Notes under the pieces: model-generated
The model's input: the letters and a program-made list of their open reading frames with translations, nothing else
Databases searched by the model: none
What the model was told of the DNA's origin: nothing
Position numbers and translations under genes: made by a program
Shown: positions 12,680 to 52,591 of the stretch, piece by piece
Layout: each line of letters starts with the position of its first letter
How positions within the stretch are numbered: position 1 is the first letter of the stretch
Assembly (NCBI RefSeq): GCF_037902255.1
Contig: NZ_CP147990.1
Location: 674,751-738,750 of the forward strand
Source: Candidatus Electrothrix sp. GW3-4
GTDB lineage: Bacteria; Desulfobacterota; Desulfobulbia; Desulfobulbales; Desulfobulbaceae
Direction of reading: 5' to 3'
DNA length: 64,000 nt

Positions 12680-14662
<1,983 letters not shown>

Positions 14663-25454: not shown

Positions 25455-25660
25455 TAGGAACTGTTTGCATTAGTTGTCGGCGCATGATATTTTTTTAATA
25501 AAGCGCAGTATATTTTTCAGGATATAAGGCGGTTGCCTTGCGGAAACCTATTGTCTATGCTTTAGTACCAAGAGCCCTTTTTATGCCAAGGCGTTGGCTG
25601 GGCACATTGACCGCCGTAAAAGTAGCTGCATTTACTCATTATTACCTGGAGGAAGATTTT

Positions 25661-26449
25661 ATGTATGTTCTCACATTTCGGATTGTCGCTTTGCTGGCAG
25701 TCCTTATGACGATGGCTTTTCCCCCGCACGCGCAGGCTGCGGAAAGTATGTCTGAATTGGTCAACAGAGCAGGGATGCAGCGTATGTTGTCGCAGAGGAT
25801 CGCTAAGGCCTATTTTTATCTCGGCAATGATGTCTCTGTAAAAGAGACCAAGCTCCAGCTGGATATGGCCATTGAGCGATTTCAAAAGAATCATGCCCTG
25901 CTGAAGGCAAACGTGCAGGATGCAGAGACCAAGGAGCTGCTCTCCTTTGTAGAAGATAATTTTTCCCAATATCTTGATTTGGTGACGAAACCCTATAACC
26001 AGGAAAACGCAACTCGCGTTTTGGCCTTAAGCGAAGCCCTGCTGGAGGTCTGTCATTCAGTTGTTCTTAATCTTGAAGATCAGTCAGGTGCCCATGATGA
26101 TCATATTATTAATATTTCAGGTAAACAGCGCATGCTCTCCCAGCGGGTCTCAAAGTTTTATATTGCCTATCAGGCCGGATTCCGGGACGATAACACGGTG
26201 CATAGTTTGAATAATGCTATTGAAGAGTTTGAGTCTGGCCTGAAAAAATTGATGAATGAAGGGCGTAACACTGAGGAAATTGATGCCCTGCTTACGAAGA
26301 TTAAAACAGAGTGGGAGAGGATTTCTCCGTATTTTCTCAAGGTCCGCAAGGGTGGCCTGCTGCTCATGGTACTGACAACGACTGACGATCTTACCAAGAT
26401 GTCAGATCGGCTGACTAAGCTGTATGTTGATAAAATTGTTGCCAAATAG
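25661..26449 (+). CDS. Secreted protein with two PilJ-N/NarX-type periplasmic four-helix-bundle sensor domains (NxAGxQRMLSQR motif x2).
   Basis: Signal peptide. GMQRMLSQRIAKAYFYLG and GKQRMLSQRVSKFYIAYQ P-box-like motifs. No transmitter domain. Confidence 0.7.
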   Translation: MYVLTFRIVALLAVLMTMAFPPHAQAAESMSELVNRAGMQRMLSQRIAKAYFYLGNDVSVKETKLQLDMAIERFQKNHALLKANVQDAETKELLSFVEDNFSQYLDLVTKPYNQENATRVLALSEALLEVCHSVVLNLEDQSGAHDDHIINISGKQRMLSQRVSKFYIAYQAGFRDDNTVHSLNNAIEEFESGLKKLMNEGRNTEEIDALLTKIKTEWERISPYFLKVRKGGLLLMVLTTTDDLTKMSDRLTKLYVDKIVAK

Positions 26450-26585
26450 GAGCGGTAATCCCTCTTTTACTTTGTAACTCCTTTGAACTGGTTGGGCGAT
26501 AGACAATATGATGTCTGCTGGATAATGTGAGCCCATGTCCGTCGCTATATCGCTGCACTATACTTTCCACCTGGAGGAAGATTTT

Positions 26586-27380
26586 ATGTATGTTTTCACA
26601 CTTCGGATTGTCGTTTTGCTGGCAGTCGTTATGACGATGCCTTTTCTCCCGCACGCGCAGGCAGACGAAAATATGTCTGAATTGGTCAATAAATCAGGAA
26701 TGCAACGGATGCTGTCGCAGCGGATTGCCAAGGCCTATTTCTATCTCGGTAATGATATTTCTGCGAGAGAAACGAAGTTGCAATTGAATATGGCAATTGA
26801 GCGGTTTAAAAAGAATCATGCCCTTTTGAAGGAAAAAGTACAAGATAGCGAAACAAAGGATCTTCTCTCTTTTGTTGAGGAGACCCTTTCCGAATACAGT
26901 GATTTGGTCAATAAACCGTATAGTCAAGAGAATGCGGCTCGCGTCTTGGCCTTAAGTGATACCCTGCTGGAGGTCTGTCATTCAGTTGTTCTTAATCTTG
27001 AAGATCAGTCAGGGGAGCATGTGGATCATATCGTTAATATTTCGGGTAAACAACGTATGCTCTCTCAGCGGGTCGCAAAATTTTATATTGCCTATCAGAC
27101 CGGATTCCGGGATGAGGATACTGTTCATAAGTTGAATAATGCTGTTGAGGAGTTTGAGACAGGGTTAAAAGAACTTATGAGTGAAGGTCGTAATGATCGA
27201 GAAATAAACGATCTTCTTGTCAAAGTAGAAAAAGAATGGGAAAGAATCTCCCCGTTTTTTCTCAAGGTTCGGGAAGGTGGCCTACCGATCATGGTGTTGA
27301 CAGCGACTGATGAGATCACCAAACTGGCGGACCGAATTACTTCTCTCTATGTAGAGACTGTTGGCAAAGAGGGCAGGTAG
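26586..27380 (+). CDS. Tandem paralog of the preceding PilJ-N double-domain protein (~75% identity).
   Basis: Same architecture. The duplicated RBS/start context CCTGGAGGAAGATTTTATGTATGTT is also repeated. Confidence 0.7.
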   Translation: MYVFTLRIVVLLAVVMTMPFLPHAQADENMSELVNKSGMQRMLSQRIAKAYFYLGNDISARETKLQLNMAIERFKKNHALLKEKVQDSETKDLLSFVEETLSEYSDLVNKPYSQENAARVLALSDTLLEVCHSVVLNLEDQSGEHVDHIVNISGKQRMLSQRVAKFYIAYQTGFRDEDTVHKLNNAVEEFETGLKELMSEGRNDREINDLLVKVEKEWERISPFFLKVREGGLPIMVLTATDEITKLADRITSLYVETVGKEGR

Positions 27381-27749: not shown

Positions 27750-28784
27750 ATGAAATACTCCCGCGTCTGCCTTCACAGCTTTGGCTATGAATTGCCGCCC
27801 AATATAGTGACCTCGGCTGATCTTGAGCAACAGCTCTCGTCCGTCTATAGACGGTTGAAGCTCCCGGAAGGCCGTCTTGAGTTGATGAGCGGTATCCGCA
27901 GCCGACGATTTTGGAATCCAGAAACCCTCCCCAGTGAAGGAGCTATTCTTGCCGGACGCAAGGCCCTGCTTGCCTCGGGACTCACCGCCTCTGATATTGA
28001 TTTTATGGTCTTCACCTCGGTGAGTCGGGATATGATGGAGCCTGCCACGGCCTCTTTTGTCCATCATGGTCTCGGGTTGGGGAGCCGTTGCCAGATATTT
28101 GATATCTCCAATGCCTGTCTTGGTTTCCTCAACGGTATGCTCATGCTGGCCAATATGATTGAGCTGGGCCAGGTCCGCTACGGTTTGATTGTGGCCTCTG
28201 AGACGGCCGAGGATTTGGTTTGTTCCACTATTGAGCAGCTGCAGACAGATGACACCCTGACCCGCAAGACCATCAAGCCTGCCTTTGCTTCGTTGACTAT
28301 CGGTTCAGGGGCCGTTGCCCTGGTTATGGGCTCAAAGAAGGTTCAAGATACCGGCCACCGGCTGGTTGGCGGCTCCTGGCGGGCCAATACCCGTCATAAT
28401 GATCTTTGCCACGGGGGACAGAATGGAGGGGATGGTACCTTGATGAGCACGGATTCTGAGGTCCTGCTGGAAAAAGGGGTTGAAACAGCGGAGTTCTGCT
28501 GGCAGGATTTTCAAAAAGAAACCGGTTGGAGCAAGGAAAAGGTCGATCGTTTTTTCTGTCATCAGGTCGGACAGGCCCATGCAAAGAAGCTGTTCTCCAC
28601 CCTTGAGCTTGATCCTGAACGGAATTTTGAGACCTTGCCAGTGCTGGGCAATGTGGGATCGGTGTCTGCACCCATCACAATGGCTATGGGGATAGAAAAA
28701 GGTAAGCTTAAACAGGGGCAGCGGGGAGCGTTATTGGGAATCGGTTCCGGGATCAACTCGGTGATGCTGGGGATTGAGTGGTAA
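27750..28784 (+). CDS. oleA: OleA-type thiolase (FabH-like head-to-head condensing enzyme of olefin biosynthesis).
   Basis: FabH fold with IFDISNACLGFLNGM active-site Cys and GIGSGINSVM C-terminus. Strong resemblance to remembered OleA sequences. Overlaps the oleB start. Confidence 0.6.
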   Translation: MKYSRVCLHSFGYELPPNIVTSADLEQQLSSVYRRLKLPEGRLELMSGIRSRRFWNPETLPSEGAILAGRKALLASGLTASDIDFMVFTSVSRDMMEPATASFVHHGLGLGSRCQIFDISNACLGFLNGMLMLANMIELGQVRYGLIVASETAEDLVCSTIEQLQTDDTLTRKTIKPAFASLTIGSGAVALVMGSKKVQDTGHRLVGGSWRANTRHNDLCHGGQNGGDGTLMSTDSEVLLEKGVETAEFCWQDFQKETGWSKEKVDRFFCHQVGQAHAKKLFSTLELDPERNFETLPVLGNVGSVSAPITMAMGIEKGKLKQGQRGALLGIGSGINSVMLGIEW

Positions 28785-29662
28785 TGGAACGTTTTTCCTC
28801 CGGGCTTGCCCAGTATCCTTTTACCCCAAAGACCTTCCAAACAGCTGACGGACATCAGCTTTCCTATCTTGATGAGGGGACTGGGCCGACCGTGGTCATG
28901 GCCCACGGCAATCCCTCCTGGTCCTATCTGTACCGCAATCTGGTGACAGCATTAAAGTCCGATTACCGTTGCCTGGTACCGGATCATCTGGGCTGTGGCC
29001 TTTCTGATAAACCGCAGGACTATCCCTACCTTCTCCAAAATCATATCGATAATTTTACGGCCCTGCTTGATAACCAGGGTATTGAACGCTGTGTCCTGGT
29101 GGTCCATGACTGGGGTGGGGCCATCGGGATGGGCTGGGCCGGACAATATCCTGAACGGGTGGCCGGGCTGGTGGTGCTCAACACGGCGGCTTTCCACTCC
29201 CGTCACATCCCCCTGCGGATCGCGGTGTGCCGTTGGCCCCTCCTTGGTGCCCTGCTCGTCCGGGGTCTGAATGGTTTTGCCCTGCCTGCCACCTTTATGG
29301 CAGTGCGCAAGCGGATGCAGCCCGAGATCAAGGCCAGCTTTCTTGCCCCCTATAATAACTGGGCCAGGCGGGTAGCGGTCCATGGTTTTGTCCAGGATAT
29401 TCCCTTGCAAGCCAGCCATCCCTCTTGGAACAGCCTGAGCCGGGTGGAGGATTCTCTTACGCAGCTTCAGGATAAACCTATGCTCATCTGCTGGGGCGGA
29501 AAAGACTTCTGCTTTAATGATCATTTCTATGCCGAGTGGCGCCGACGTTTTCCACATGCAGAGGCCCATTATTTCCCAGAGGCTGGCCATTATGTGCTGG
29601 AAGATGCCCTGCCCCAGGTGTTGGAACAGCTTCAGCCCTTTCTTCTCCGCTGCCATGTCTAA
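28778..29662 (+). CDS. oleB: OleB-type alpha/beta hydrolase (haloalkane-dehalogenase-like; beta-lactone decarboxylase).
   Basis: HGNPSWSYLYRNLV and VVHDWGGAIG motifs. Translationally coupled to oleA. Confidence 0.6.
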   Translation: MVMERFSSGLAQYPFTPKTFQTADGHQLSYLDEGTGPTVVMAHGNPSWSYLYRNLVTALKSDYRCLVPDHLGCGLSDKPQDYPYLLQNHIDNFTALLDNQGIERCVLVVHDWGGAIGMGWAGQYPERVAGLVVLNTAAFHSRHIPLRIAVCRWPLLGALLVRGLNGFALPATFMAVRKRMQPEIKASFLAPYNNWARRVAVHGFVQDIPLQASHPSWNSLSRVEDSLTQLQDKPMLICWGGKDFCFNDHFYAEWRRRFPHAEAHYFPEAGHYVLEDALPQVLEQLQPFLLRCHV

Positions 29663-29706
29663 CCCCACATGGCGCTCCCTGTTGCCTGCCATGGTGATCG
29701 AAAAAG

Positions 29707-30168
29707 ATGCAGAATAAGTTTCTCGGTACGGGAGAACAGGGCTTTCGCCCGATCCGCAAGATCCGGGTGGCCTTATCAGGTCTCCGTTATGCTGTCCTCT
29801 TTGATTTTGCGGTTGGCTATAAGGTCGTCCTGTCCGCCGTGACCCTGGCAGGCTGCTTTTACTACCGCCAATGGCTGGACTTCAGCATGGTCTTTATGGC
29901 CACTGGCTTTATGCTGGCCTCAGAGATGTTCAACACCACGGTTGAGGCGCTTTGTGATTTTCTGGAGCCCCATGAGAATGAACGGATAGCCATTATTAAG
30001 GATATCTCGGCTGCGGCTGCGGGTGTCAGTATCCTGGTCTGGTGTCTTGTTCTCGGTATTGAAGCTGTGCAGGTATTCCGTCACATTGACAGATCTCCCC
30101 TTGTTTATCTTGATCCTACATTCCGCATACCCCTTACCCATTTTCAGAATATAGTCTCAACTTTCTGA
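29707..30168 (+). CDS. Diacylglycerol kinase (DgkA) family membrane protein.
   Basis: ASEMFNTTVEALCDFLEPHENERIAIIKDISAAAAGV matches the DgkA catalytic motif. Three TM helices. Confidence 0.65.
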   Translation: MQNKFLGTGEQGFRPIRKIRVALSGLRYAVLFDFAVGYKVVLSAVTLAGCFYYRQWLDFSMVFMATGFMLASEMFNTTVEALCDFLEPHENERIAIIKDISAAAAGVSILVWCLVLGIEAVQVFRHIDRSPLVYLDPTFRIPLTHFQNIVSTF

Positions 30169-31007: not shown

Positions 31008-32993
31008 ATGAACGTTCAGGTGCGGGAACAGGGAAACAAATTCTGGAAATTCATCCGGATGATCGCTCGGGTTGCCGGAAATGGCGGCAGGAAAAGGGGG
31101 CGCTTGCAACAGACGATCCTCCTCCTCCTGCCGCTGTTCTATGTCATGATCGGCTTTGTCTCCATCGACAAAGGGCAGGTCGGGATTGTCTTTGCCAAAT
31201 TTGGCAGCAAACCGGCGGTGGCTGAACGCTTTATCGTTGAGGAGGGGGAACAGGGCTATCGGCGGGAGGTGCTTATGCCGGGCATGCATTTCTACTGGCT
31301 TCTGGAGCCGCTTTGGAAATATACGATCAAGGAGGAACCCTTCACCACCATCCAGACCGGCATGATCGGGGTGGTCAATGCCAAGGACGGGTATCCCATG
31401 CGACCCGGTCAGATCCTTGCCGACTCAGACAGCTATGAAGAGGTCACTGAGGACGGGCGCAAGATCAAGAAATTTAAGATGGGCCAGAAAGGTCCACGCC
31501 TGGAGGTTCTCAAACCGGGCAGCTACCCGATCAATACCGCTTATCTGGAGATAAAGCCCTTTCCGTCAGTGCAGATCCCCGAGGGGAGTCTCGGCGTGCT
31601 GACCAGGCTGTACGGTGATGAACCGCCCCAGGGGACCATTCTGGTCTCCAAGGAGAGTGAATTCCGGGGGATCATCCGCGAGGTCTTACAGCCGGGTACC
31701 TATTACATCAATCCCCAGGCCTATAAACACGAGATCGTCGAGGCGGTGAAGATTGACAAGGGCCAGGTTGGGGTAGTCACCAAGCGGGTGGGTAAGGTGC
31801 CGCCGGAGGGAACTATCCTGGTGGATGCCAATGATGCGTTTCAGGGTATCCAGAAGCAGGTTCTGCAGCCAGGTATGTATTACATCAATCCCTATGAAAA
31901 ATCTCTGCGCATAGAAGATGCGGTCTTTGTCCCGGATGGGCATGTGGGGGTGCAGATCGCCAAGACCGGGATCGCCAAACCCGTGGATCAGCTCTTGGCC
32001 AAGGAGGGGGAACGGGGCATCCAGGAGGATACCCTGCCACCGGGCCTCTATTATCTCAATCCCTATGCCACCCAGGTGGTGAACATTGATATCCGCCAGC
32101 AGCGTTATGAGATGACCTATCTGGAAGGCCAGGGCGACACCCAGCAGAACGATGCCATTGTTTTTTACTCGGATGACGGCTTTGAGATTGCCATTGACGT
32201 AACCGTGCTCTTTCAGGTCCTGCCCCATGATGCCCCCTATGTGGTGGCCACCATCGGTCGGGATGTCCAGGATATCAAAGAGAAGATTATCCGTCCCCAG
32301 GCCCGTTCCTATGCCCGAATCCTCGGTTCCCGGTACAAGGGCGAGGATTTTGTCCACGGCGCGACCCGGGAGACCTTTCAGAACGACATCCATAAGGAGC
32401 TGAAGGTCAAGACCCTGGAGAGCAGGGTCCAGATGAATCAGGCCCTGGTCCGCCATTTCGAGGTCCCGGCCCAGTTGCGTCAACCTATCACCGATAAGGT
32501 CATTGCCCTGAAGATGCAGGAAAAGTTCGAGCAGGAGCAGAAGACCCAGCAGGCCAATGCTGATCTGGCCCGGGAAAAGGAAAAGGTCAACTTTGAGTCT
32601 GCCAAGGTGGTGGCCGAGACCAAGAAGGTCAAGGCGATCATCAGTGCTGAGGAAGAACGGGCGGTTGAGGAGATCAACGTGGCCAAGAAGGAGTTCATCG
32701 CCCAGGGTGAGGCCAAGAAGATTCAGATCGGTGCGGATGCGGCCCTCTATGAAAAGGAAAAAGAGGCAACCGGTATCCTGGCCTTAGGTAAGGCCAAGGC
32801 AGAGGCTAAGAAATTGGAACTGGCCGCCTATCAGGGGCAGGGCGGACAGCGTTTTGCCGAGGTGGAAAAGGCCAAGGCGCTGGGCAGCGGTATTGAGAAA
32901 ATCTATTATATTCCCTCTGATATGAGCATCAATGCCATTGCCAAGGACTTTGAAAACGCGATTACGGTGGGACTGCCGGATAATAAGAAGTAA
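31008..32993 (+). CDS. SPFH/band-7 (flotillin-like) protein with N-terminal TM, four ~90-aa internal repeats, SPFH core and a Glu/Ala/Lys-rich coiled-coil tail.
   Basis: Repeats of KGQVGxV…GTILV…GIQxxVLQPGxYYINPY, then NDAIVFYSDDGFEIAIDVTVLFQV (SPFH) and a C-terminal EA-rich coil. Confidence 0.75.
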   Translation: MNVQVREQGNKFWKFIRMIARVAGNGGRKRGRLQQTILLLLPLFYVMIGFVSIDKGQVGIVFAKFGSKPAVAERFIVEEGEQGYRREVLMPGMHFYWLLEPLWKYTIKEEPFTTIQTGMIGVVNAKDGYPMRPGQILADSDSYEEVTEDGRKIKKFKMGQKGPRLEVLKPGSYPINTAYLEIKPFPSVQIPEGSLGVLTRLYGDEPPQGTILVSKESEFRGIIREVLQPGTYYINPQAYKHEIVEAVKIDKGQVGVVTKRVGKVPPEGTILVDANDAFQGIQKQVLQPGMYYINPYEKSLRIEDAVFVPDGHVGVQIAKTGIAKPVDQLLAKEGERGIQEDTLPPGLYYLNPYATQVVNIDIRQQRYEMTYLEGQGDTQQNDAIVFYSDDGFEIAIDVTVLFQVLPHDAPYVVATIGRDVQDIKEKIIRPQARSYARILGSRYKGEDFVHGATRETFQNDIHKELKVKTLESRVQMNQALVRHFEVPAQLRQPITDKVIALKMQEKFEQEQKTQQANADLAREKEKVNFESAKVVAETKKVKAIISAEEERAVEEINVAKKEFIAQGEAKKIQIGADAALYEKEKEATGILALGKAKAEAKKLELAAYQGQGGQRFAEVEKAKALGSGIEKIYYIPSDMSINAIAKDFENAITVGLPDNKK

Positions 32994-35840: not shown

Positions 35841-35870
35841 GTCTGATTTCGCTTTACGCAATCAAGACCT
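35841..35870 (+). repeat. Repeat GTCTGATTTCGCTTTACGCAATCAAGACCT. It has a near-identical copy at 45819-45849 and degenerate relatives at ~36909-36933 and ~43980-44005.
   Basis: Direct sequence comparison. Contains an internal imperfect inverted repeat GGTCTGAT…ATCAAGACC. Confidence 0.6.
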
Positions 35871-36799: not shown

Positions 36800-36946
36800 T
36801 TGCGTAGGTCCGATTGAGCTCCGCGAAATCAGACAGTTCGAGCTGAAATTTTGCAGACACTGAGTGCAAAATTGAGCTGAACTCACTTTAAGACGATCAT
36901 CAATATCCTGTCCGCTTTCGCTGCACTCAAGCCGTGCCCCTACGGC

Positions 36947-42421: not shown

Positions 42422-43921
42422 ATGAACGCCGAAACCCTTATTTCCAAAGTCTGGAGTTTCTGTACCACCCTCAGGGATGATGGCGTCGGCTATGGCGACT
42501 ACCTGGAACAACTGACCTATCTCATCTTCCTGAAAATGGCGGATGAATACCGCAGGCCCCCCTATAAGCGCGATGTCGGTATCCCGGAGGAGTTCACCTG
42601 GAACAGCCTGCGCAGCAAAAAGGGCGCAGAGCTGGAAGGGCATTATATTACCCTGCTCCGGGAGCTGGGCATGAAGAAGGGCATGCTCGGCCAGATCTTC
42701 ACCAAATCCCAGAACAAGATTCAGGACCCGGCCAAGCTCTCCCGCCTGGTGGAGATGGTCAATGACACCGATTGGGTCATGCTGGATGCCGATACCAAGG
42801 GCACCATCTACGAAGGGCTTCTGGAAAAGAACGCCGAAGACACCAAGTCCGGCGCTGGTCAGTATTTCACCCCGCGCTCCCTGATCAAGGCCATGGTCGC
42901 CTGTATGCGCCCGGAACCCATGCAGACCATTGCCGACCCTGCCTGCGGTACCGGCGGCTTTTTCCTTTCTGCCTATGATCACCTGATCGGCAATCATAAG
43001 CTCGATAAAAAGCAGAAGGCCTTTCTCAAGTTTGCAACCTTTAGCGGCAATGAGATCGTCTCCAATACCCGCCGCATGTGCCTGATGAACATGTTTCTCC
43101 ACAACATCGGCGAAATTGATGGCGAGAGTGCGGTGAGCGCCAACGACGCCCTGATTGCTCCTCCCGCCTACACCGTGGATATGGTGCTGGCCAATCCGCC
43201 CTTTGGTAAAAAGAGCAGCATGACCTTTACCAACCAGGAAGGGGAACAGGAGAAAGACGACCTGACCTATAACCGCCAGGATTTCTGGGCCACCACCTCC
43301 AACAAGCAGGTCAACTTTGTCCAGCACATCCGCTCCATGCTCAAATCCACAGGTCGGGCCGCTGTGGTGGTCCCTGATAACGTCCTCTTTGAAGGCGGGG
43401 CTGGGGAAACCGTGCGCAAGAAGCTCATGGAGACCACAGAACTCCACACCATTTTGCGGCTGCCCACTGGTATCTTTTACGCCAACGGGGTCAAGGCCAA
43501 TGTCCTCTTTTTCGATAACCGCCCGGCCCAGAAAGAGCCCTGGACCAAGGAGGTGTGGTTCTACGATTACCGCACTAATATTCACCACACCCTGAAGAAA
43601 AAGCCCCTGCGCCTGGAGCATCTTCAGGACTTTATTGCCTGCTATAGCCCGGAAAACCGTCATAAGCGAGAAGCAACCTGGGATGCTGCAACCAACCCCG
43701 AGGGGCGGTGGCGGAAGTACGTCTATAATGATATCATCGCCAGAGACAAAATCAGCCTGGATATCTTCTGGCTCAAGGATAAATCCCTGGCCGACCTGGA
43801 CAACCTGCCTGAGCCGGAAGATCTGGCCGCAGAGATTATCGAAAACATTGAAGCAGGGTTGCAGAGTTTCCGGGAAGTTGCTGTTGGTTTAAGCGTAATT
43901 AGCACATCCACAGAGGGGTAG
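42422..43921 (+). CDS. hsdM: Type I RM N6-adenine DNA methyltransferase (HsdM).
   Basis: N-terminal HsdM_N (DYLEQLTYLIFLKMADE), NPPFG catalytic motif, AdoMet motif I DPACGTGGF. Confidence 0.9.
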   Translation: MNAETLISKVWSFCTTLRDDGVGYGDYLEQLTYLIFLKMADEYRRPPYKRDVGIPEEFTWNSLRSKKGAELEGHYITLLRELGMKKGMLGQIFTKSQNKIQDPAKLSRLVEMVNDTDWVMLDADTKGTIYEGLLEKNAEDTKSGAGQYFTPRSLIKAMVACMRPEPMQTIADPACGTGGFFLSAYDHLIGNHKLDKKQKAFLKFATFSGNEIVSNTRRMCLMNMFLHNIGEIDGESAVSANDALIAPPAYTVDMVLANPPFGKKSSMTFTNQEGEQEKDDLTYNRQDFWATTSNKQVNFVQHIRSMLKSTGRAAVVVPDNVLFEGGAGETVRKKLMETTELHTILRLPTGIFYANGVKANVLFFDNRPAQKEPWTKEVWFYDYRTNIHHTLKKKPLRLEHLQDFIACYSPENRHKREATWDAATNPEGRWRKYVYNDIIARDKISLDIFWLKDKSLADLDNLPEPEDLAAEIIENIEAGLQSFREVAVGLSVISTSTEG

Positions 43922-43924
43922 CAC

Positions 43925-43951
43925 TGTAGGGGCGAATCCCTGTGTTCGTCC
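43925..43951. repeat. REP-like palindromic unit TGTAGGGGCGAATCCCTGTGTTCGTCC immediately after hsdM.
   Basis: Same family as the intragenic hrpA repeats at 5589-5660. Confidence 0.55.
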
Positions 43952-44062
43952 TTGTATATCAGACGGTTTGAGCAATGCGTTGTCCGCTTTCGTTTTGTTC
44001 AAGCAGATCTATCCGACTGTTTCGTTATTTCATATTATTTTTTTACCCAAGGGAGAAAAACA

Positions 44063-44389
44063 ATGGCATCTATTGAGCACAATGGTATCACCTATGAGGT
44101 TGATTATGACGGTTTCCTGTTGAACGGTTCTGAGGAATGGGACGATAACTGGGTTGATTACGTAAAGGGTATTGAAGGTATCAACGACATAACCGATGAG
44201 CATCAGAAAGTTATTGTCGCTCTGCAGGAATACTACAAGAAGAATGGTATTCCCCCCATGCACGATATTATTTGTTCCAAGGTTACAGGGTTCCCGTTGA
44301 AGAAAATCTACGAGCTGTTCCCGTCAGGGCCTATTAAAGGAGCCCGTAAAATGGCTGGGTTACCCCAAATTAATCCCTCTACTATCTGA
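44063..44389 (+). CDS. DsrC/TusE-family protein lacking both conserved C-terminal cysteines.
   Basis: MASIEHNGITYEVDYDGFLLNGSEEWDDNW…YELFPSGPIKGARKMAGLPQINPSTI follows the DsrC fold pattern. The tail is …AGLPQINPSTI instead of …CxxAGLPKPxGCV. Confidence 0.65.
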   Translation: MASIEHNGITYEVDYDGFLLNGSEEWDDNWVDYVKGIEGINDITDEHQKVIVALQEYYKKNGIPPMHDIICSKVTGFPLKKIYELFPSGPIKGARKMAGLPQINPSTI

Positions 44390-44419
44390 CTTGAATTAAC
44401 TGAAGCTCAAAAAGTTCCG

Positions 44420-45801
<1,382 letters not shown>

Positions 45802-45858
45802 TCAATTTCATAATACAAGGTCTGATTTCGCTTTACTCAATCAAGACCTACACAGTTC

Positions 45859-46497
45859 ATGTGGACCGCCATGTTCCACCAAGATAACCTTACCCGCAGC
45901 TTAGCCAAAATAGGAGCACAACCCTCTTTTTCCATTTTCGATAAACTCAAACAAGTCTATACGGAGCCGGGACGCTACTATCATACGGATAAGCATATTA
46001 CCGACTGCCTGACTCATGTACAACCCCTCCGCCATCAAGCAACGCATCCAGCGGAGATTGCAATCGCGCTCTGGTTTCACGACGCAATCTACGACACCCG
46101 CAGGGAAGACAACGAAGAGCAAAGTGCGGAATGGGCAGTCAACTTTCTTGGAGCATCTGAGGTCAAACAGGCAGTCATAGACCGGATAGCCCGTCTGATC
46201 ATGGTGACCAAAATCCATGATCCCTTTGATGCCGATACCGCTCTCATGACAGATATTGACCTCAGCATCTTAGGTGCGCAGCCCCAGCTGTTTGAGCAAT
46301 ATGATGCTGATATTCGCCGTGAATACGCTTGGGTTCCAGACGAACAATTTCGACAAGGGCGTGTACAGGTTCTGAAGAGCTTTCTGGAGCGAGCAAGAAT
46401 CTACACAACAGCCTATTTTTCAGAGCAATACGAAGAGCAGGCCCGAGTGAATCTCAAGCGCAAAATTAAGCAGCTTTCCTCTGGTTTGTTGCTGTAA
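45859..46497 (+). CDS. Predicted HD-superfamily metal-dependent phosphohydrolase.
   Basis: RYYHTDKHI … WFHDAIYD (H…HD…D pattern). 212 aa. Confidence 0.5.
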   Translation: MWTAMFHQDNLTRSLAKIGAQPSFSIFDKLKQVYTEPGRYYHTDKHITDCLTHVQPLRHQATHPAEIAIALWFHDAIYDTRREDNEEQSAEWAVNFLGASEVKQAVIDRIARLIMVTKIHDPFDADTALMTDIDLSILGAQPQLFEQYDADIRREYAWVPDEQFRQGRVQVLKSFLERARIYTTAYFSEQYEEQARVNLKRKIKQLSSGLLL

Positions 46498-46538
46498 TAC
46501 CGAGAGATGAAAGATGGATAGAGACAAAGGAGGGCAGT

Positions 46539-47180
46539 ATGCGTAGCTTTCGAGAATGGACCTTGGCGGAACTGGACAGAGCGTTTAAACTAACTGTTCT
46601 TGATACCAGCCCGGTGCTGGAAAATTGGCTCAATGGCCAAGCGGAAATATCCTCCTATGAACAGCAAGCCTTAGGCTCTTTTCAAACCCTGTTAAAGACC
46701 CATGTCTATGACTGGAACGAGACCGAGCTCGCCTATAATTTCATTGGCCCGCTCATGACCCTGGTTCGTTTCAGCACAAAAGAATTTAATTTTTTTGCGG
46801 AACGTCCCTTATCTGGTGTTGTAGATGAGGTCGAAATGACAGGCAGGCCTGACGGCATTATTGCCTCTGGTTTTCGGGAGCCGCAACAGCCCTATTTTTG
46901 CCTCCAGGAATATAAGAAAGAAAAAGACCCAGAGGGCGATCCCGCAGCCCAGGTACTTGCAGCCATGCTGGTGGCCCAGGAGCTGAATCAGCATAAATTA
47001 CCAGTGTATGGTTGTTATGTGAAAGGGGAGGTCTGGCATTTTCTCACCCTGGAAGAGCGATCCTATGCAATCAGTCAGGGATATCTGGCCTCCCGGCAGG
47101 CGGATCTCAATGAAATTTTCACCATCCTGAAGCGTCTCAAAGTAATCATTACCGCTTTTACAAGCAGAACAGACACATGA
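46539..47180 (+). CDS. Hypothetical 213-aa protein translationally coupled to oleC.
   Basis: ATGA overlap with the oleC start. No recognisable motif. Confidence 0.5.
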   Translation: MRSFREWTLAELDRAFKLTVLDTSPVLENWLNGQAEISSYEQQALGSFQTLLKTHVYDWNETELAYNFIGPLMTLVRFSTKEFNFFAERPLSGVVDEVEMTGRPDGIIASGFREPQQPYFCLQEYKKEKDPEGDPAAQVLAAMLVAQELNQHKLPVYGCYVKGEVWHFLTLEERSYAISQGYLASRQADLNEIFTILKRLKVIITAFTSRTDT

Positions 47181-48817
47181 ATAACTGCAACATCGGTGCG
47201 GCTCTGCATAAGGCCGCCGCAGAACGGAAAGACGCCGTTGCCCTGGTCACGGGCAAGAACGGCAAATATCAACAATGGACCTTCCGGCAGGTGGTGGAAA
47301 ACAGCAATAGCTTCGCCAATGCCCTGCGGAAAAGAGGTGTACAGCGCGGCGACCGGATCATGCTCATGGTGCGGCCGTCCATGGAGTTCATCTGTCTGAC
47401 CTATGCCCTGTTCCAACTGGGCGCCGTGGTGATCCTCATAGATCCGGGCATGGGCTATAAGAACCTGCTCCGCTGTATCGGTTCGGTCCAGCCCAAGGTG
47501 CTAATCGCCATTCCCCAGGTGCATCTTTTTTCCCGTTTATTTCGCCAGCCCTTTAAATCGGTGAAGCAACGCTTCTGCATTGGCCAACCCTTTTTCGGGT
47601 TGTGCGGCGTCTATCTGCAAGGCGCAGCCCAGAAGGCTGGCCAGTATTTCAGTCCGGTGCAGACGGACGAGGATGAACTGGCCGCGATTATTTTCACCAC
47701 CGGTTCCACCGGTCCGCCTAAAGGAGTGCAGTACACCCACGGCATCTTTTATCACCAACTGCAACAGATCCGGGAGTATTACGGCATCGGTCCCCAGGAT
47801 ATCGACCAGCCCGGCTTTCCCCTGTTCGGGCTTTTTGCCACCGCCCTGGGTGCGGCGGCGGTGATTCCGGATATGGACCCCACTCGCCCTGCCGAGGTTG
47901 ACCCGGTCAAGTTCATCCGCTCCATCCAGGATAAGCAGGTCACCTATTCCTTTGGCTCCCCTGCCATCTGGAACGTGGTGAGCCGCTACTGCATTGACCA
48001 GGATATCACCCTGCCGGTACGGAAGATCCTCATGGCCGGGGCCCCGGTGCCGGGCGAGCTGATTGAACGAGTCCAGCGGATCATGCCTGAGGAGGGGGAG
48101 GTCTACACCCCCTACGGTGCCACCGAGAGCCTGCCCTCCACCTCCATCACCGGGCGGGAGATCCTCCAGGAGACCTGGGCCCAGACCCGGCTTGGTAAAG
48201 GTACCTGTGTTGGTCGCCCTTTGCCAGGGATGCGGGTTGCAATTATCCGACCGGTTGATGGTCCGCTGGCTCATTGGAACGAGGCCGAGGTCCTGCCCTT
48301 CGGGACCATCGGCGAGATCGCGGTCAAAGGTCCGGTGGTGACCCCGGCCTATGATCATAATGAGCAGGAAACCCAGCTGGCCAAGATCGCGGATCAGGAG
48401 GGGCTCTGGCATCGTATGGGCGATATGGGCTACCAGGATGAGCAGGGACGGCTCTGGTTTTGCGGTCGTAAGGCCCACCGGGTCCTGACTGAAGATGGTC
48501 CCATGTACACGATTTGCTGCGAGGCCATCTTTAACGAACACCCTGAGGTCTTTTGTTCTGCCCTGGTTGGTCTGGGTGAGCCAGGCAAGCAGGAGCCTGT
48601 GTTGACGGTGGAGTTGCACGCGAAAAAGGCCAAGGATGAAGAGCGTCTTTGCGCGGAACTGCATGAGCTGGCCCGTGCCAATCCCCTGACCAGCAAGATT
48701 GAGACCTTTATGATCTTTGCGGCCTTTCCGGTGGATATTCGTCATAATGCGAAGATCTTCCGGGAAAAGCTGGCGGTTTGGGCCCAGCAGCGCATGGAGT
48801 GCCGCCAGGGGCTCTGA
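47177..48817 (+). CDS. oleC: OleC-type AMP-dependent ligase (olefin beta-lactone synthetase).
   Basis: IIFTTGSTGPPKGV, VIPDMDPTRPA, HRMGDMGYQDEQGRLWFCGRK and C-terminal FPVDIRHNAKIFREKLAVWA closely match remembered OleC signatures. Confidence 0.6.
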   Translation: MNNCNIGAALHKAAAERKDAVALVTGKNGKYQQWTFRQVVENSNSFANALRKRGVQRGDRIMLMVRPSMEFICLTYALFQLGAVVILIDPGMGYKNLLRCIGSVQPKVLIAIPQVHLFSRLFRQPFKSVKQRFCIGQPFFGLCGVYLQGAAQKAGQYFSPVQTDEDELAAIIFTTGSTGPPKGVQYTHGIFYHQLQQIREYYGIGPQDIDQPGFPLFGLFATALGAAAVIPDMDPTRPAEVDPVKFIRSIQDKQVTYSFGSPAIWNVVSRYCIDQDITLPVRKILMAGAPVPGELIERVQRIMPEEGEVYTPYGATESLPSTSITGREILQETWAQTRLGKGTCVGRPLPGMRVAIIRPVDGPLAHWNEAEVLPFGTIGEIAVKGPVVTPAYDHNEQETQLAKIADQEGLWHRMGDMGYQDEQGRLWFCGRKAHRVLTEDGPMYTICCEAIFNEHPEVFCSALVGLGEPGKQEPVLTVELHAKKAKDEERLCAELHELARANPLTSKIETFMIFAAFPVDIRHNAKIFREKLAVWAQQRMECRQGL

Positions 48818-48910: not shown

Positions 48911-49879
48911 ATGAAGTGTCTGGAGTTTGTAAATGGTGACCAAATGCCTATGTTGGGGTTGGGCACCTGGAAATCCGCACCCGGTGATGTCTACAAGGCA
49001 GTCAAGGAGGCCTTGAAGCTGGGCTATCGTCATATTGATTGTGCACCGATCTACGGGAATGAAGTCGAGGTCGGTCGAGCCCTGGCAGAGTCGATTGCTG
49101 AGGGGGTGGTGGCCCGGGAAGAGCTCTGGCTCACCTCCAAGCTCTGGAATGATTGCCATGCACCAGAAGACGTACAGCCTGCCTTGGAAAAGACTCTGGC
49201 TGATTTGCAGATAGCGTATCTGGATCTCTATCTCATTCATTGGCCCGTGGCCTTGAAGAAGGGCTCGCTTTTTCCCAATACCGGTGCTGATATGCTCTCC
49301 CTGGAGGAAATGCCGCTCGCCCAGACCTGGAGCGGTATGGAGGCGGTGCTGGCAAAGAAGCTCTGCCGTCATATTGGGGTGAGTAACTTCAGCCTGCCCA
49401 AGCTCCAGGGCCTGCTTGAGGTTGCTCAAGTGCGACCGGAGATGAACCAAGTGGAGTTGCACCCCTATTTGCAGCAGCCGGAACTGCTCGATTTTTGCCG
49501 GAAGAATGCGGTGCATATGACGGCCTATTCTCCTCTGGGCTCCCCTGATAGGCCCCTGGCCTTAAAGGCAGAGAATGAACCTCTGCTGATGGCCGATCCT
49601 GTGATCGGTCAGATTGCCCAACAGCATGGCTGTACCCCTGCCCAGGTCTTGATCAGCTGGGCTGTGCAGCGTGAGACGGTTGTTATTCCCAAGTCAATCA
49701 ACCCCGCACGAATGGAGGCGAACCTTGCTGCTGCCTCGCTGGCACTCAGAGTTGATGATATGGAGAAGATCGCGGCCCTTGATCGGCATCGTCGCTATGT
49801 CAGCGGGGATTTTTGGGTCCTTGCAGATGGTCCCTACACTGTAGGGAACCTCTGGGATGAAAAAAAGGAAGAAGGTTGA
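48911..49879 (+). CDS. Aldo/keto reductase (NADPH-dependent oxidoreductase).
   Basis: LGLGTWKS…GYRHIDCAPIYGNE AKR catalytic-tetrad context. Start at ATG 48911, with GGAGG upstream. Confidence 0.8.
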   Translation: MKCLEFVNGDQMPMLGLGTWKSAPGDVYKAVKEALKLGYRHIDCAPIYGNEVEVGRALAESIAEGVVAREELWLTSKLWNDCHAPEDVQPALEKTLADLQIAYLDLYLIHWPVALKKGSLFPNTGADMLSLEEMPLAQTWSGMEAVLAKKLCRHIGVSNFSLPKLQGLLEVAQVRPEMNQVELHPYLQQPELLDFCRKNAVHMTAYSPLGSPDRPLALKAENEPLLMADPVIGQIAQQHGCTPAQVLISWAVQRETVVIPKSINPARMEANLAAASLALRVDDMEKIAALDRHRRYVSGDFWVLADGPYTVGNLWDEKKEEG

Positions 49880-49900: not shown

Positions 49901-50509
49901 ATGAAAGCAGTTGTTGTTGAACAGATTGGCGGGTTTCGTCTTGCAGATATCCCCTGTCCTGAGCCTGGTCCGGGTGAGGTCCTGATCAAAACCGCTGTCA
50001 CCGGTATGTGTCGAACCGACCTCAAGATCATCGAGGTCGGGCATCGGGACCTGGTCTTGCCCCGGGTCCCTGGGGAAGAGGTGGTGGGCACGGTCTGCGC
50101 AGTGGGGCCGGATGTTGCTCCCCAATATATGGGGCAACGGGTCTATGTCTATCCCGGGACAAGTTGCGGGCACTGTAAGGCCTGTCTGCAGGGGGCAGGC
50201 AACCTCTGCTCCGGGATGCAGATCATGGGCTTCCACCGTGACGGCGGTTTTGCCGACTATGTCGCAGCGCCAGTGGCAAGCATTATGGCGATCCCGGAGA
50301 GCTGTTCCTTTGAGCAGGCAGTAACTGCGGAGCCGCTTTCCTGCTGTCTCAATGCCCTGGAGTTATCCGAGCTGCAGGCCGGGGAACGGATCGGTATCTG
50401 GGGCGGTGGGCCTGCTGGTGCCTTTCTTGCCCGGGCTGCCCAGGCGATGGGTGCCGAGCCCATAGTCATTGAACCCCATGAAGCACGGCATTGCTATCAC
50501 GAATCCTGA
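49901..50509 (+). pseudogene. Truncated zinc-dependent MDR alcohol dehydrogenase. It has the catalytic domain plus the start of the Rossmann fold, then terminates.
   Basis: CGHCKACLQGAGNLC structural-Zn motif and GGGPAGAF, then premature end at ~200 of the expected ~340 aa. Confidence 0.6.
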
Positions 50510-51093
50510 GCCAGATCCGTTTCGGTACCACCCTGAATATTGCTGCCTCCCTGGCCAATCCAGCCCGGCCCACCCATGGTCTGCGCGGTGTTTATGCCGA
50601 GTCCCTGCTCAAGCCGGTGGCTGAGGTCATGGCCTCTATCGGCTACCAACGCGGCTTGGTGGTGCATGGCAAAGCAGACGGACAGGAAGGGGGTATGGAT
50701 GAGTTGTCGGTCTGCGGTCCTTCCACAGTGTGTGAATTTTCGGACAATGGGGAAAGGGAAGAGTACAGCCTGGCTCCAGAAGATGTCGGCTTAAAGACAG
50801 TACCGTTTGGTGAGATTGCGACCACCGGGGATCTGGATAAGGAGCGAAGACGTTTTCTCAGTGTTCTTGCGGGTAAAGGAGAGCAGGGCTGTGTGGATTT
50901 TACTTGTCTCAATGCCGGTGCGACCCTCTATGCGGGAGGACGGGCCGAGGGTATTAGAGAAGGAGTTCAGCTGGCCTCAGAAGCCATTGCCGATGGGTCG
51001 GCTCTTGCTAAGCTGAAAGGTTGGGTTGCAGTACAGAGTAACGATGGCACCGATGCTGCCGCACATCTTGCCGAGGAACTCGCTGCGTTATAA
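50491..51093 (+). pseudogene. C-terminal ~60% of anthranilate phosphoribosyltransferase (TrpD) without its N-terminus, in a different frame from the ADH fragment.
   Basis: …NIAASLANPARP…GLVVHGKADGQEGGMDELS…LNAGATLYAGG matches the TrpD C-terminal half. No other trp genes nearby. Confidence 0.55.
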
Positions 51094-51613: not shown

Positions 51614-52591
51614 TCAGCCGTCCGGGATACGATGTCCCGCCTTGTTCTCAACAAAGGCGGTGACCACAGCGCTGGGGACCCAGGCCTTATCGTTTTTCAC
51701 GCCTTTGATTTTGCCGGGCAGGTGGCGATACTGAGCGAAATTGACCTTGAGGCCAAGCCCTTTTTTCACCATGTCCAGGTCATGACCACCGGGGAAGAGA
51801 TGGCTCTTCTTGCCGTTCTTGCCGCCCTTTTCCATATGGCAGTCCTGACAGGTTTCGGTGCCGCCGTTGTTGGCGTAGGCGTTCTGGAAGCTGCCGGAAA
51901 GGGTGTTGCATTGGATGGTCTCTCCGTCCGGTGCCTTGTATTTGCCGTGGCACTGCATACAGAAAACTGAACGGGTGATATCAACGGTCTCAATGGTCTC
52001 ATGGGCACCGCCGCTGTCAGCTCCTGTGGGACCGTAAATGGCGCCTTTCTTGGGGTCTCCGCGCAGACCACGGGCAACCGTGATCGCCTTTAGATTATGA
52101 CAGGAAACACAGCCGACACTCAGCTTGGATAGCTCTTCTTTCGCCTTCTTGCCAGCTGGTTTGTCTTTTTCCTTATGGGCCGTAATAACCTTCTCGGCTA
52201 TTTCTACGGCTAATTTTTCAGATGCATACTGGATTACCGGGGCGTGACAGTCATAACACTTCATCACCTCGGCCTTGGTTATCGGTTTATTCCACTCTTT
52301 GGGAAGACCGATGGCAAAGAAATTATGAATACCTTTTATAGCACCGGGAGAGACAACCGACTGGGCATGCCAGGACTGCTGCCACTCATCATGAATTTCG
52401 GTATGGCATTCACCGCATTTTTTCTCGCCCAGCATTTCGACGAGTTCGTCAATGGTGTTTGCCTCCTTGGTGACAATGGAGTGCGGGTTCTTGTCGGCTT
52501 TTTTGCTTTCTTTTGCCGCAAGAGGTTGAGTGAACAGCATGATACAGCCCAGTATCAAGCATGTTCGAAACAGCACGGTAACTGCTTTCAT
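51614..52591 (-). CDS. Periplasmic multiheme c-type cytochrome with five CxxCH motifs.
   Basis: Signal peptide. CGECH, CYDCH, CVSCH, CMQCH, CQDCH. Confidence 0.8.
   Translation of the reverse strand: MKAVTVLFRTCLILGCIMLFTQPLAAKESKKADKNPHSIVTKEANTIDELVEMLGEKKCGECHTEIHDEWQQSWHAQSVVSPGAIKGIHNFFAIGLPKEWNKPITKAEVMKCYDCHAPVIQYASEKLAVEIAEKVITAHKEKDKPAGKKAKEELSKLSVGCVSCHNLKAITVARGLRGDPKKGAIYGPTGADSGGAHETIETVDITRSVFCMQCHGKYKAPDGETIQCNTLSGSFQNAYANNGGTETCQDCHMEKGGKNGKKSHLFPGGHDLDMVKKGLGLKVNFAQYRHLPGKIKGVKNDKAWVPSAVVTAFVENKAGHRIPDG

Follow-up and report, generated by a model that had tools for sequence, protein, structure and literature searches.

Dispersed oleAB, oleC and oleD loci and a probably ordinary OleABCD olefin pathway in the cable bacterium Candidatus Electrothrix sp. 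GW3-4

Long-chain olefin biosynthesis begins with the joining of two fatty acyl thioesters by OleA, which gives a 2-alkyl-3-keto acid; OleD reduces the OleA product with NADPH, OleC closes the hydroxy acid to a beta-lactone with ATP, and OleB decarboxylates the beta-lactone to a cis-olefin (PMC6463001). OleB, OleC and OleD form a complex, and the known Ole systems are clusters with zero to three intervening genes (PMC7064751, PMC6463001); besides such oleABCD clusters, the published contexts comprise fused oleBC genes and oleACD clusters that lack oleB, and homologues of OleA, OleC and OleD are used by the lipstatin and nocardiolactone clusters, which are of the oleACD type (PMC7064751). Here we describe a stretch of 64 kb from Candidatus Electrothrix sp. 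GW3-4, a cable bacterium, referred to below as the window, which carries three of the four standard long-chain olefin genes, oleA, oleB and oleC, with oleC separated from oleB by 17,514 bp and about 14 open reading frames (ORFs). We consider it quite probable that these genes serve an ordinary four-enzyme OleABCD pathway, whose ancestral operon was split in cable bacteria into three loci, oleAB, oleC and oleD. No new reductase or pathway component is needed, because oleD is encoded elsewhere in the same genome.

The gene for the head-to-head fatty acyl condensing thiolase, oleA (27750..28784, + strand, 344 aa), and the gene for the beta-lactone decarboxylase with a haloalkane-dehalogenase-like alpha/beta-hydrolase fold, oleB (28784..29662, +, 292 aa from its ATG), share one base, since the TAA stop of the former and the ATG of the latter at 28784 are written as TAATG; an in-frame GTG also lies 5' of this ATG, at 28778. 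The AMP-dependent beta-lactone synthetase is encoded by oleC (47177..48817, +, 546 aa). OleA scored 452 bits against the NCBIfam model PRK09258 (cutoff 285), contained the Pfam domains ACP_syn_III and ACP_syn_III_C, and matched the Xanthomonas OleA structures 3fk5 and 3row with 220 bits, whereas the best FabH reached only 86 bits. Its residues E97, C123, H271 and N301 aligned with E117, C143, H285 and N315 of Xanthomonas campestris OleA, in which Cys143, His285 and Asn315 are catalytic and Glu117 is specific to OleA, according to papers as cited in PMC7064751. OleB gave 99.7 bits with Pfam Abhydrolase_1 and about 152 bits with the NCBIfam haloalkane dehalogenase models, which is under their cutoffs and fits an enzyme that is not a dehalogenase; its first structure matches were 8ckp and 8ooh, followed by haloalkane dehalogenases, and the alignment to 8ckp showed that Asp109 in HDWGG and His269 in GHY are kept. 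In the X. campestris enzyme Asp114 is the nucleophile and His277 the catalytic histidine.

OleC scored 660 bits against PRK09274 (cutoff 478), and carried the adenylation motifs TTGSTGPPKG, YGATE and GRK. Against the olefin beta-lactone synthetase models NF045786 and NF045785 it reached 540 bits (cutoff 900) and 496 bits (cutoff 850), respectively, with the next family at 200 bits. The proteins were also compared with those encoded by intact operons of non-cable Desulfobulbaceae, namely locus L005 of an uncultured Desulfobulbus (identity of 70, 64 and 65% for OleA, OleB and OleC) and locus L008 of the Desulfobulbaceae genome GCA_054019615.1 (81, 70 and 71%), and for OleC the identity to both orthologues spans the full length; its best relatives are those of Candidatus Electrothrix species (85–87%). 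Judged by sequence, OleA, OleB and OleC of the window are Ole enzymes orthologous to the operon-encoded ones. An earlier note on this DNA had named the three proteins in the same way, and the PRK09258 and PRK09274 scores above cutoff, the preference for OleA structures over FabH, the aligned catalytic residues and the identity of 64–71% (OleB) and 65–71% (OleC) to the operon-encoded proteins bear it out; its other readings of the gene layout, namely the tight junction of oleA and oleB, a DgkA-family gene after oleB and an aldo/keto reductase (AKR) after oleC, were likewise confirmed by the coordinates and by Pfam.

As the earlier note had stated, oleD is missing from the window: tblastn of the whole window with operon-encoded OleD gave no match at E<0.01, and a Pfam scan of 38 of its larger ORFs gave no Epimerase or 3Beta_HSD domain. 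Nor were remnants of oleC or oleD detected 3' of oleB, the sole other match being an acetyl-CoA-synthetase-like gene (12680-14662). However, GW3-4 encodes a standard OleD, P0152, at a separate locus with the gene order oleD-PPK2-CvpA-Era-RNase II. Contigs identical to the oleAB and oleC regions of the window were found in the sequencing runs SRR28154589 and SRR28154588, and the contig of P0152 comes from the same run as that of the window's oleC, SRR28154588. The AKR of the window matches that of GW3-4 with 100% identity. A further candidate for the GW3-4 OleD, P0166, a Logan-only cluster, was rejected because it derives from a different sample. The best NCBIfam families of P0152 were two 2-alkyl-3-oxoalkanoate reductase (OleD) models (349 and 341 bits), followed by HpnA (129 bits), and this profile is nearly identical to that of the L008 operon OleD (369 and 359 bits on the same two models), to which P0152 is 71% identical; it also contains the dinucleotide-binding motif TGGGGFIG and the catalytic motif YALTK. 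The operon OleDs of L005 and L008 are themselves of the 3Beta_HSD/Epimerase type. A database search found OleD orthologues, 66–71% identical to the L008 protein, in no fewer than 14 named genomes of cable bacteria, including Electrothrix scaldis, aarhusensis, laxa, YB6, AR3, AR5, AUS4, ATG2, AW3_4 and GW3-4 as well as Electronema halotolerans, aureum and JC, and the pairing of oleD with PPK2 is kept in E. scaldis (L009) and in other Electrothrix contigs (L062, L063).

The arrangement of the ole genes differs between cable bacteria and their relatives. In non-cable Desulfobulbaceae the genes are contiguous in the order DUF1232-oleA-oleB-oleC-oleD, with all four visible at six loci (L005, L008, L024, L026, L031, L034) and oleA to oleC visible at a seventh on a truncated contig (L027). 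In the cable bacteria examined (L011–L023, L028, L029, L032), oleA-oleB, or oleA alone in some Electronema, was found with no adjoining oleC or oleD. Among complete genomes, E. scaldis has oleC at 4.23 Mb and oleD at 2.17 Mb, about 2 Mb apart, with oleAB not located directly; Electronema halotolerans has oleA alone at 0.56 Mb, oleC at 0.75 Mb and oleD at 2.08 Mb; and Electrothrix YB6 has oleAB at 2.92 Mb, oleC at 2.61 Mb and an oleD (P0164). The window itself does not hold a clustered locus in the sense of oleABCD with zero to three intervening genes. The fragmentation goes further in Electronema halotolerans, sp. KV and sp. JM (L020, L021 and L023), whose oleA has no adjoining oleB, and oleA-oleB is kept in Electronema PJ, nielsenii, aureum and JC. 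Non-contiguous ole genes are probably not unique to cable bacteria, as loci of Desulfofustis and Planctomycetota contain homologues (putative OleA) without adjacent oleBCD.

All four genes are of full length with intact catalytic or cofactor motifs. The pairwise ratio of non-synonymous to synonymous substitution rates (dN/dS) within the cable bacteria, i.e. Electrothrix and Electronema, was 0.04–0.05 for oleA, 0.08–0.11 for oleB, 0.10 for oleC and 0.07 for oleD, in which dS was 0.67–0.9 for oleA, oleB and oleC against their closest Electrothrix relatives and exceeded 1 for oleD and more distant pairs, so that dN/dS is rough there. These values, together with the full length and the intact motifs, argue against decay of the dispersed genes. 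In the history that we propose, an ancestral DUF1232-oleABCD operon would have been cut by rearrangements after oleB and after oleC in Electrothrix and Electronema, and the resulting oleAB, oleC and oleD loci would each have gained lineage-specific neighbours. The window would then hold two of the three pieces of the pathway, oleAB and oleC, and the reduction step in GW3-4 would be carried out by the OleD encoded away from it. From the established pathway we infer that the four dispersed genes cooperate and that olefins are produced by the cell.

On this reading, the neighbours in this strain, namely the DgkA-family gene, the AKR gene and the insertion bearing IS110, HD and PD-(D/E)xK genes, were brought there by rearrangement and are not pathway components. 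The DgkA-family lipid kinase gene (29707..30168, +, 153 aa; Pfam DAGK_prokar, 63.6 bits) lies 44 nt after oleB, and no terminator-like site was seen in this gap. Its position 3' of oleB is restricted to the window, E. marina (L012) and E. aarhusensis (L013); the closest relative, L011, lacks it there, as do E. laxa, E. gigas, YB6 and every Electronema. As a partner of the ole genes it was rejected, being confined to three closely related species, with the region 3' of oleB differing in every other lineage examined.

Directly 5' of oleC, a strain-specific insertion of about 3.3 kb (43952..47180) carries a DsrC-like gene (43952-44389, +; Pfam DsrC, 77 bits), an IS110 transposase gene (44638-45609, − strand; Pfam DEDD_Tnp_IS110 and Transposase_20), a gene for a 212-aa HD phosphohydrolase (45859-46497, +; phrog_19425 phage phosphohydrolase, E=5e-35) and an ORF of 213 aa encoding a PD-(D/E)xK protein (46539..47180, +; PADLOC PD_DExK, PDLC01472, E=1.4e-15), whose TGA overlaps the ATG of oleC by 4 nt (ATGA). 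In E. scaldis, the stretch equivalent to 43,883-47,177 of the window is 0.9 kb long with two small unrelated ORFs, the homology restarts exactly at the oleC ATG, and neither the 213-aa ORF nor the HD gene has a counterpart at the oleC locus. From this comparison, the likeliest origin of the ATGA overlap is an insertion that ends at the start of oleC. In this strain oleC is probably transcribed together with the HD and PD-(D/E)xK genes.

Two further observations concern this segment. The DsrC/TusE-like gene lies between the methylase gene of a type I restriction-modification system and IS110, in the part that E. scaldis does not have, and it may represent an additional, mobile copy of a protein of sulfur metabolism. 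In addition, a 30-nt sequence, GTCTGATTTCGCTTTAC[G/T]CAATCAAGACCT, is present as direct copies at 35841-35870 and 45820-45849 (29/30 identical, 9,979 nt apart), with an inverted partner at 36812-36843. One direct copy lies 5' of an exonuclease gene and the other just 5' of the HD/PD-(D/E)xK/oleC unit, and between the two lie this exonuclease gene, the type I restriction-modification system, the DsrC-like gene and IS110. The repeat may act in attachment or recombination, or else in shared regulation.

The earlier note had suggested that an AKR may substitute for OleD in this lineage and that the 213-aa protein could be a new component of the pathway; in such a model the lineage would have no OleD, and the AKR would reduce the 2-alkyl-3-keto acid. 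The absence of an OleD homologue from the window invites this idea, as does the AKR gene itself (48911..49879, +, 322 aa; Pfam Aldo_ket_red, 174 bits), which starts 93 nt past oleC on the same strand, keeps this position in E. scaldis and is under purifying selection (dN/dS 0.105), and the overlap of the 213-aa ORF with the oleC start points in the same direction. However, the same genome, like the other cable-bacterial genomes mentioned above, has a standard OleD, which is under purifying selection. GW3-4 and E. scaldis are the only ones in which the AKR was seen directly after oleC; the gene at this position is a DUF4469 gene in Electrothrix YB6 and a C_GCAxxG gene in Electronema halotolerans, both on the other strand. 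The AKR is DkgA/DkgB-like, although scoring under the cutoff, and among the top 120 matches its closest named relatives outside Electrothrix are mostly cyanobacterial (66–69% identity), with no named Electronema or Desulfobulbus AKR beyond the Electrothrix-level matches, whereas the next relatives of the ole genes are in Desulfobulbaceae. As for the 213-aa protein, it has a nuclease fold, lies beside IS110 in the insertion and is missing in E. scaldis. We regard this proposal as extremely improbable, and neither the replacement of OleD by the AKR, nor the co-conservation of the AKR with oleC, nor the role given to the 213-aa protein could be upheld. As an outcome that would speak against its own idea, the note had named a canonical oleD forming an operon with other ole genes elsewhere, and a lack of co-conservation of the two neighbours with oleC; a standard oleD was indeed found elsewhere and neither neighbour is co-conserved, but this oleD stands alone, in no operon with other ole genes.

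Could the dispersed genes instead be relics of a pathway that died after the break-up of the operon and are now decaying or drifting? None of the cable bacteria examined has kept the operon whole, oleA is apart even from oleB in some Electronema, and insertion sequences and deletions are frequent nearby (IS110 here, three IS66 copies 5' of oleC in Electronema, and a deletion next to the AKR gene described below). Nevertheless, this is very unlikely, given that the four genes are full length with conserved catalytic residues, show dN/dS of 0.04–0.11 across Electrothrix and Electronema, and were retained through the divergence of both genera. It is also conceivable, although unlikely, that the genes have separate roles, OleAB or OleA alone making long-chain ketones or another condensation product and OleC being a general fatty-acid adenylating enzyme with AKR and alcohol dehydrogenase (ADH) neighbours. 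The genes are uncoupled in the genome and probably also in transcription, OleA alone yields ketones without OleBCD (PMC6463001), and the OleA homologues of Desulfofustis and Planctomycetota stand without adjacent oleBCD; against this, OleA to OleD were counted as present in E. scaldis (partly by synteny), Electronema halotolerans (with oleA lacking an adjoining oleB) and Electrothrix YB6, and the divergence from the operon orthologues is alike for the four proteins (70–81%), with none accelerated. In a further reading, cable bacteria would keep the complete Ole pathway, dispersed but under selection, and its olefins would serve their unusual shared envelope, for example by forming a hydrophobic or insulating layer about the conductive fibres of the periplasm; in the Electrothrix subclade with the oleC-AKR arrangement the AKR could be co-transcribed with oleC and might process a side product such as a ketone from spontaneous decarboxylation of the OleA product. 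This reading seems to us very unlikely; oleABCD also occurs in the non-cable relatives, so that olefin synthesis as such is not cable-specific. Several points weigh against the ordinary, dispersed OleABCD pathway that we favour. OleC and OleD score under NCBI's narrow, genus-level equivalog cutoffs, and the dN/dS values for oleD and the more distant pairs are rough. Coordinated expression from three loci is assumed, against the clustering of the known systems and the OleBCD complex, and the 4-nt overlap with the PD-(D/E)xK gene means that transcription of oleC in GW3-4 probably comes from a foreign unit 5' of it. Our literature search found no expression, lipid or enzyme data on ole genes or olefins in cable bacteria.

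In the window, the oleAB pair follows dnaG-rpoD-dprA and two PilJ-like genes, and oleC follows the type I restriction-modification system; the interval between oleB and oleC contains the DgkA-family gene, an SPFH/Band 7 gene, a 423-aa ORF, Fic, a 3'-5' exonuclease, HsdR/S/M, the DsrC-like gene, IS110, the HD phosphohydrolase and the PD-(D/E)xK ORF. The PilJ-domain genes (NarX/PilJ-type sensor N-terminus), at 25538-26449 and 26535-27380, are tandem paralogues directly 5' of oleA, and a single copy is apparently present at this site in other Electrothrix (L011–L013, L016, L017). The SPFH/Band 7 protein (661 aa, 31008-32993) has four internal repeats of about 59 aa (177-nt period, 31504-32063), and no such gene was found at the equivalent position in E. 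marina or E. aarhusensis. Promoter and terminator scans around the oleAB and oleC loci gave counts equal to background, which are uninformative on transcription units.

Rearrangement is also visible between close strains. E. scaldis is colinear with the window over 34.1–59.5 kb, except for 43,883-47,177. In the closest relative, an uncultured Electrothrix sp. (L011, contig CBFDDU010000033.1) whose OleA is 95% identical to that of the window, colinearity ends past oleB (29,644) and resumes inverted from 52,915 back to at least 49,813, the end of the fetched locus; there oleB is followed by a multihaem cytochrome gene (window 51614-52591) and then by genes for a TrpD-like protein and a Zn-dependent ADH, in the opposite orientation. 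This indicates that a segment of about 23 kb (29.65–52.9 kb) including oleC would have been flipped between the two strains, with its far end lying beyond the fetched L011 locus, and no repeats of 30 nt or longer were found at the inversion ends (~29.65 and ~52.9 kb). Right beside the AKR gene, at 49901-51093, the ADH of the window is cut to its N-terminal 202 aa and fused into the C-terminal 200 aa of the TrpD-like protein (Glycos_transf_3). E. scaldis has intact versions of the two genes (322 and 369 aa), the spacing of the matches suggests that they are intact in L011 too, and the window is short by about 913 bp at this place compared with E. scaldis; on alignment it looks like a strain-specific deletion destroyed both.

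At the intact operons of L005 and L008, a conserved cluster lies directly 5' of oleABCD (L005:1135-8032 and L008:1145-7953), consisting of genes for a ketoacyl synthase, an acyl carrier protein, two amine-oxidase/CrtI-like flavoproteins, a ketoreductase-type short-chain dehydrogenase/reductase, a FabA/ApeI-like dehydratase and a second short-chain dehydrogenase/reductase, and DUF1232. By analogy with Shewanella, where the Pfa synthase supplies the OleA substrate, this cluster may supply a special, perhaps unsaturated, acyl substrate to OleA. No such cluster was seen beside oleAB in the cable-bacterial loci examined, where the explicit search was for DUF1232 only.

These results remove a tempting false lead, in that no AKR is required in place of OleD and the 213-aa protein is not a new Ole component, and our understanding of the Ole pathway itself is unchanged. 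What they offer is an example of an operon with complex-forming products (OleBCD) that survived fragmentation in rearrangement-prone genomes. The dispersed genes under selection predict long-chain olefins in the lipids of Electrothrix and Electronema, of which we found no report in the literature searched.

Compared with the known systems, GW3-4 has the same four enzyme families as the OleABCD systems of head-to-head hydrocarbon biosynthesis in X. campestris, Stenotrophomonas and Shewanella. The Glu/Cys/His/Asn catalytic set of its OleA is common to the Xanthomonas enzyme, the Xanthomonas and Shewanella models (beta-lactone synthetase and 2-alkyl-3-oxoalkanoate reductase) are the best specific matches for its OleC and OleD, though with scores under the genus-level cutoffs, and its oleA overlaps oleB as in ole operons. 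Unlike in the clustered systems, however, its oleB and oleC are 17.5 kb apart and its oleD is at another locus. The lipstatin and nocardiolactone clusters have no oleB and end at the beta-lactone, whereas in GW3-4 the presence of an oleB that overlaps oleA and evolves under purifying selection leads us to expect an olefin as the end product. The operon of non-cable Desulfobulbaceae (L005, L008) encodes direct orthologues of equal lengths (64–81% identity), with oleA and oleB equally tight, but it is contiguous, between the ketoacyl synthase–acyl carrier protein–desaturase–ketoreductase–dehydratase cluster and the ATP synthase operon, whereas the genes of GW3-4 are dispersed. The enzymes are thus ordinary members of their four families, and the difference is one of gene order, with the genes at three loci.

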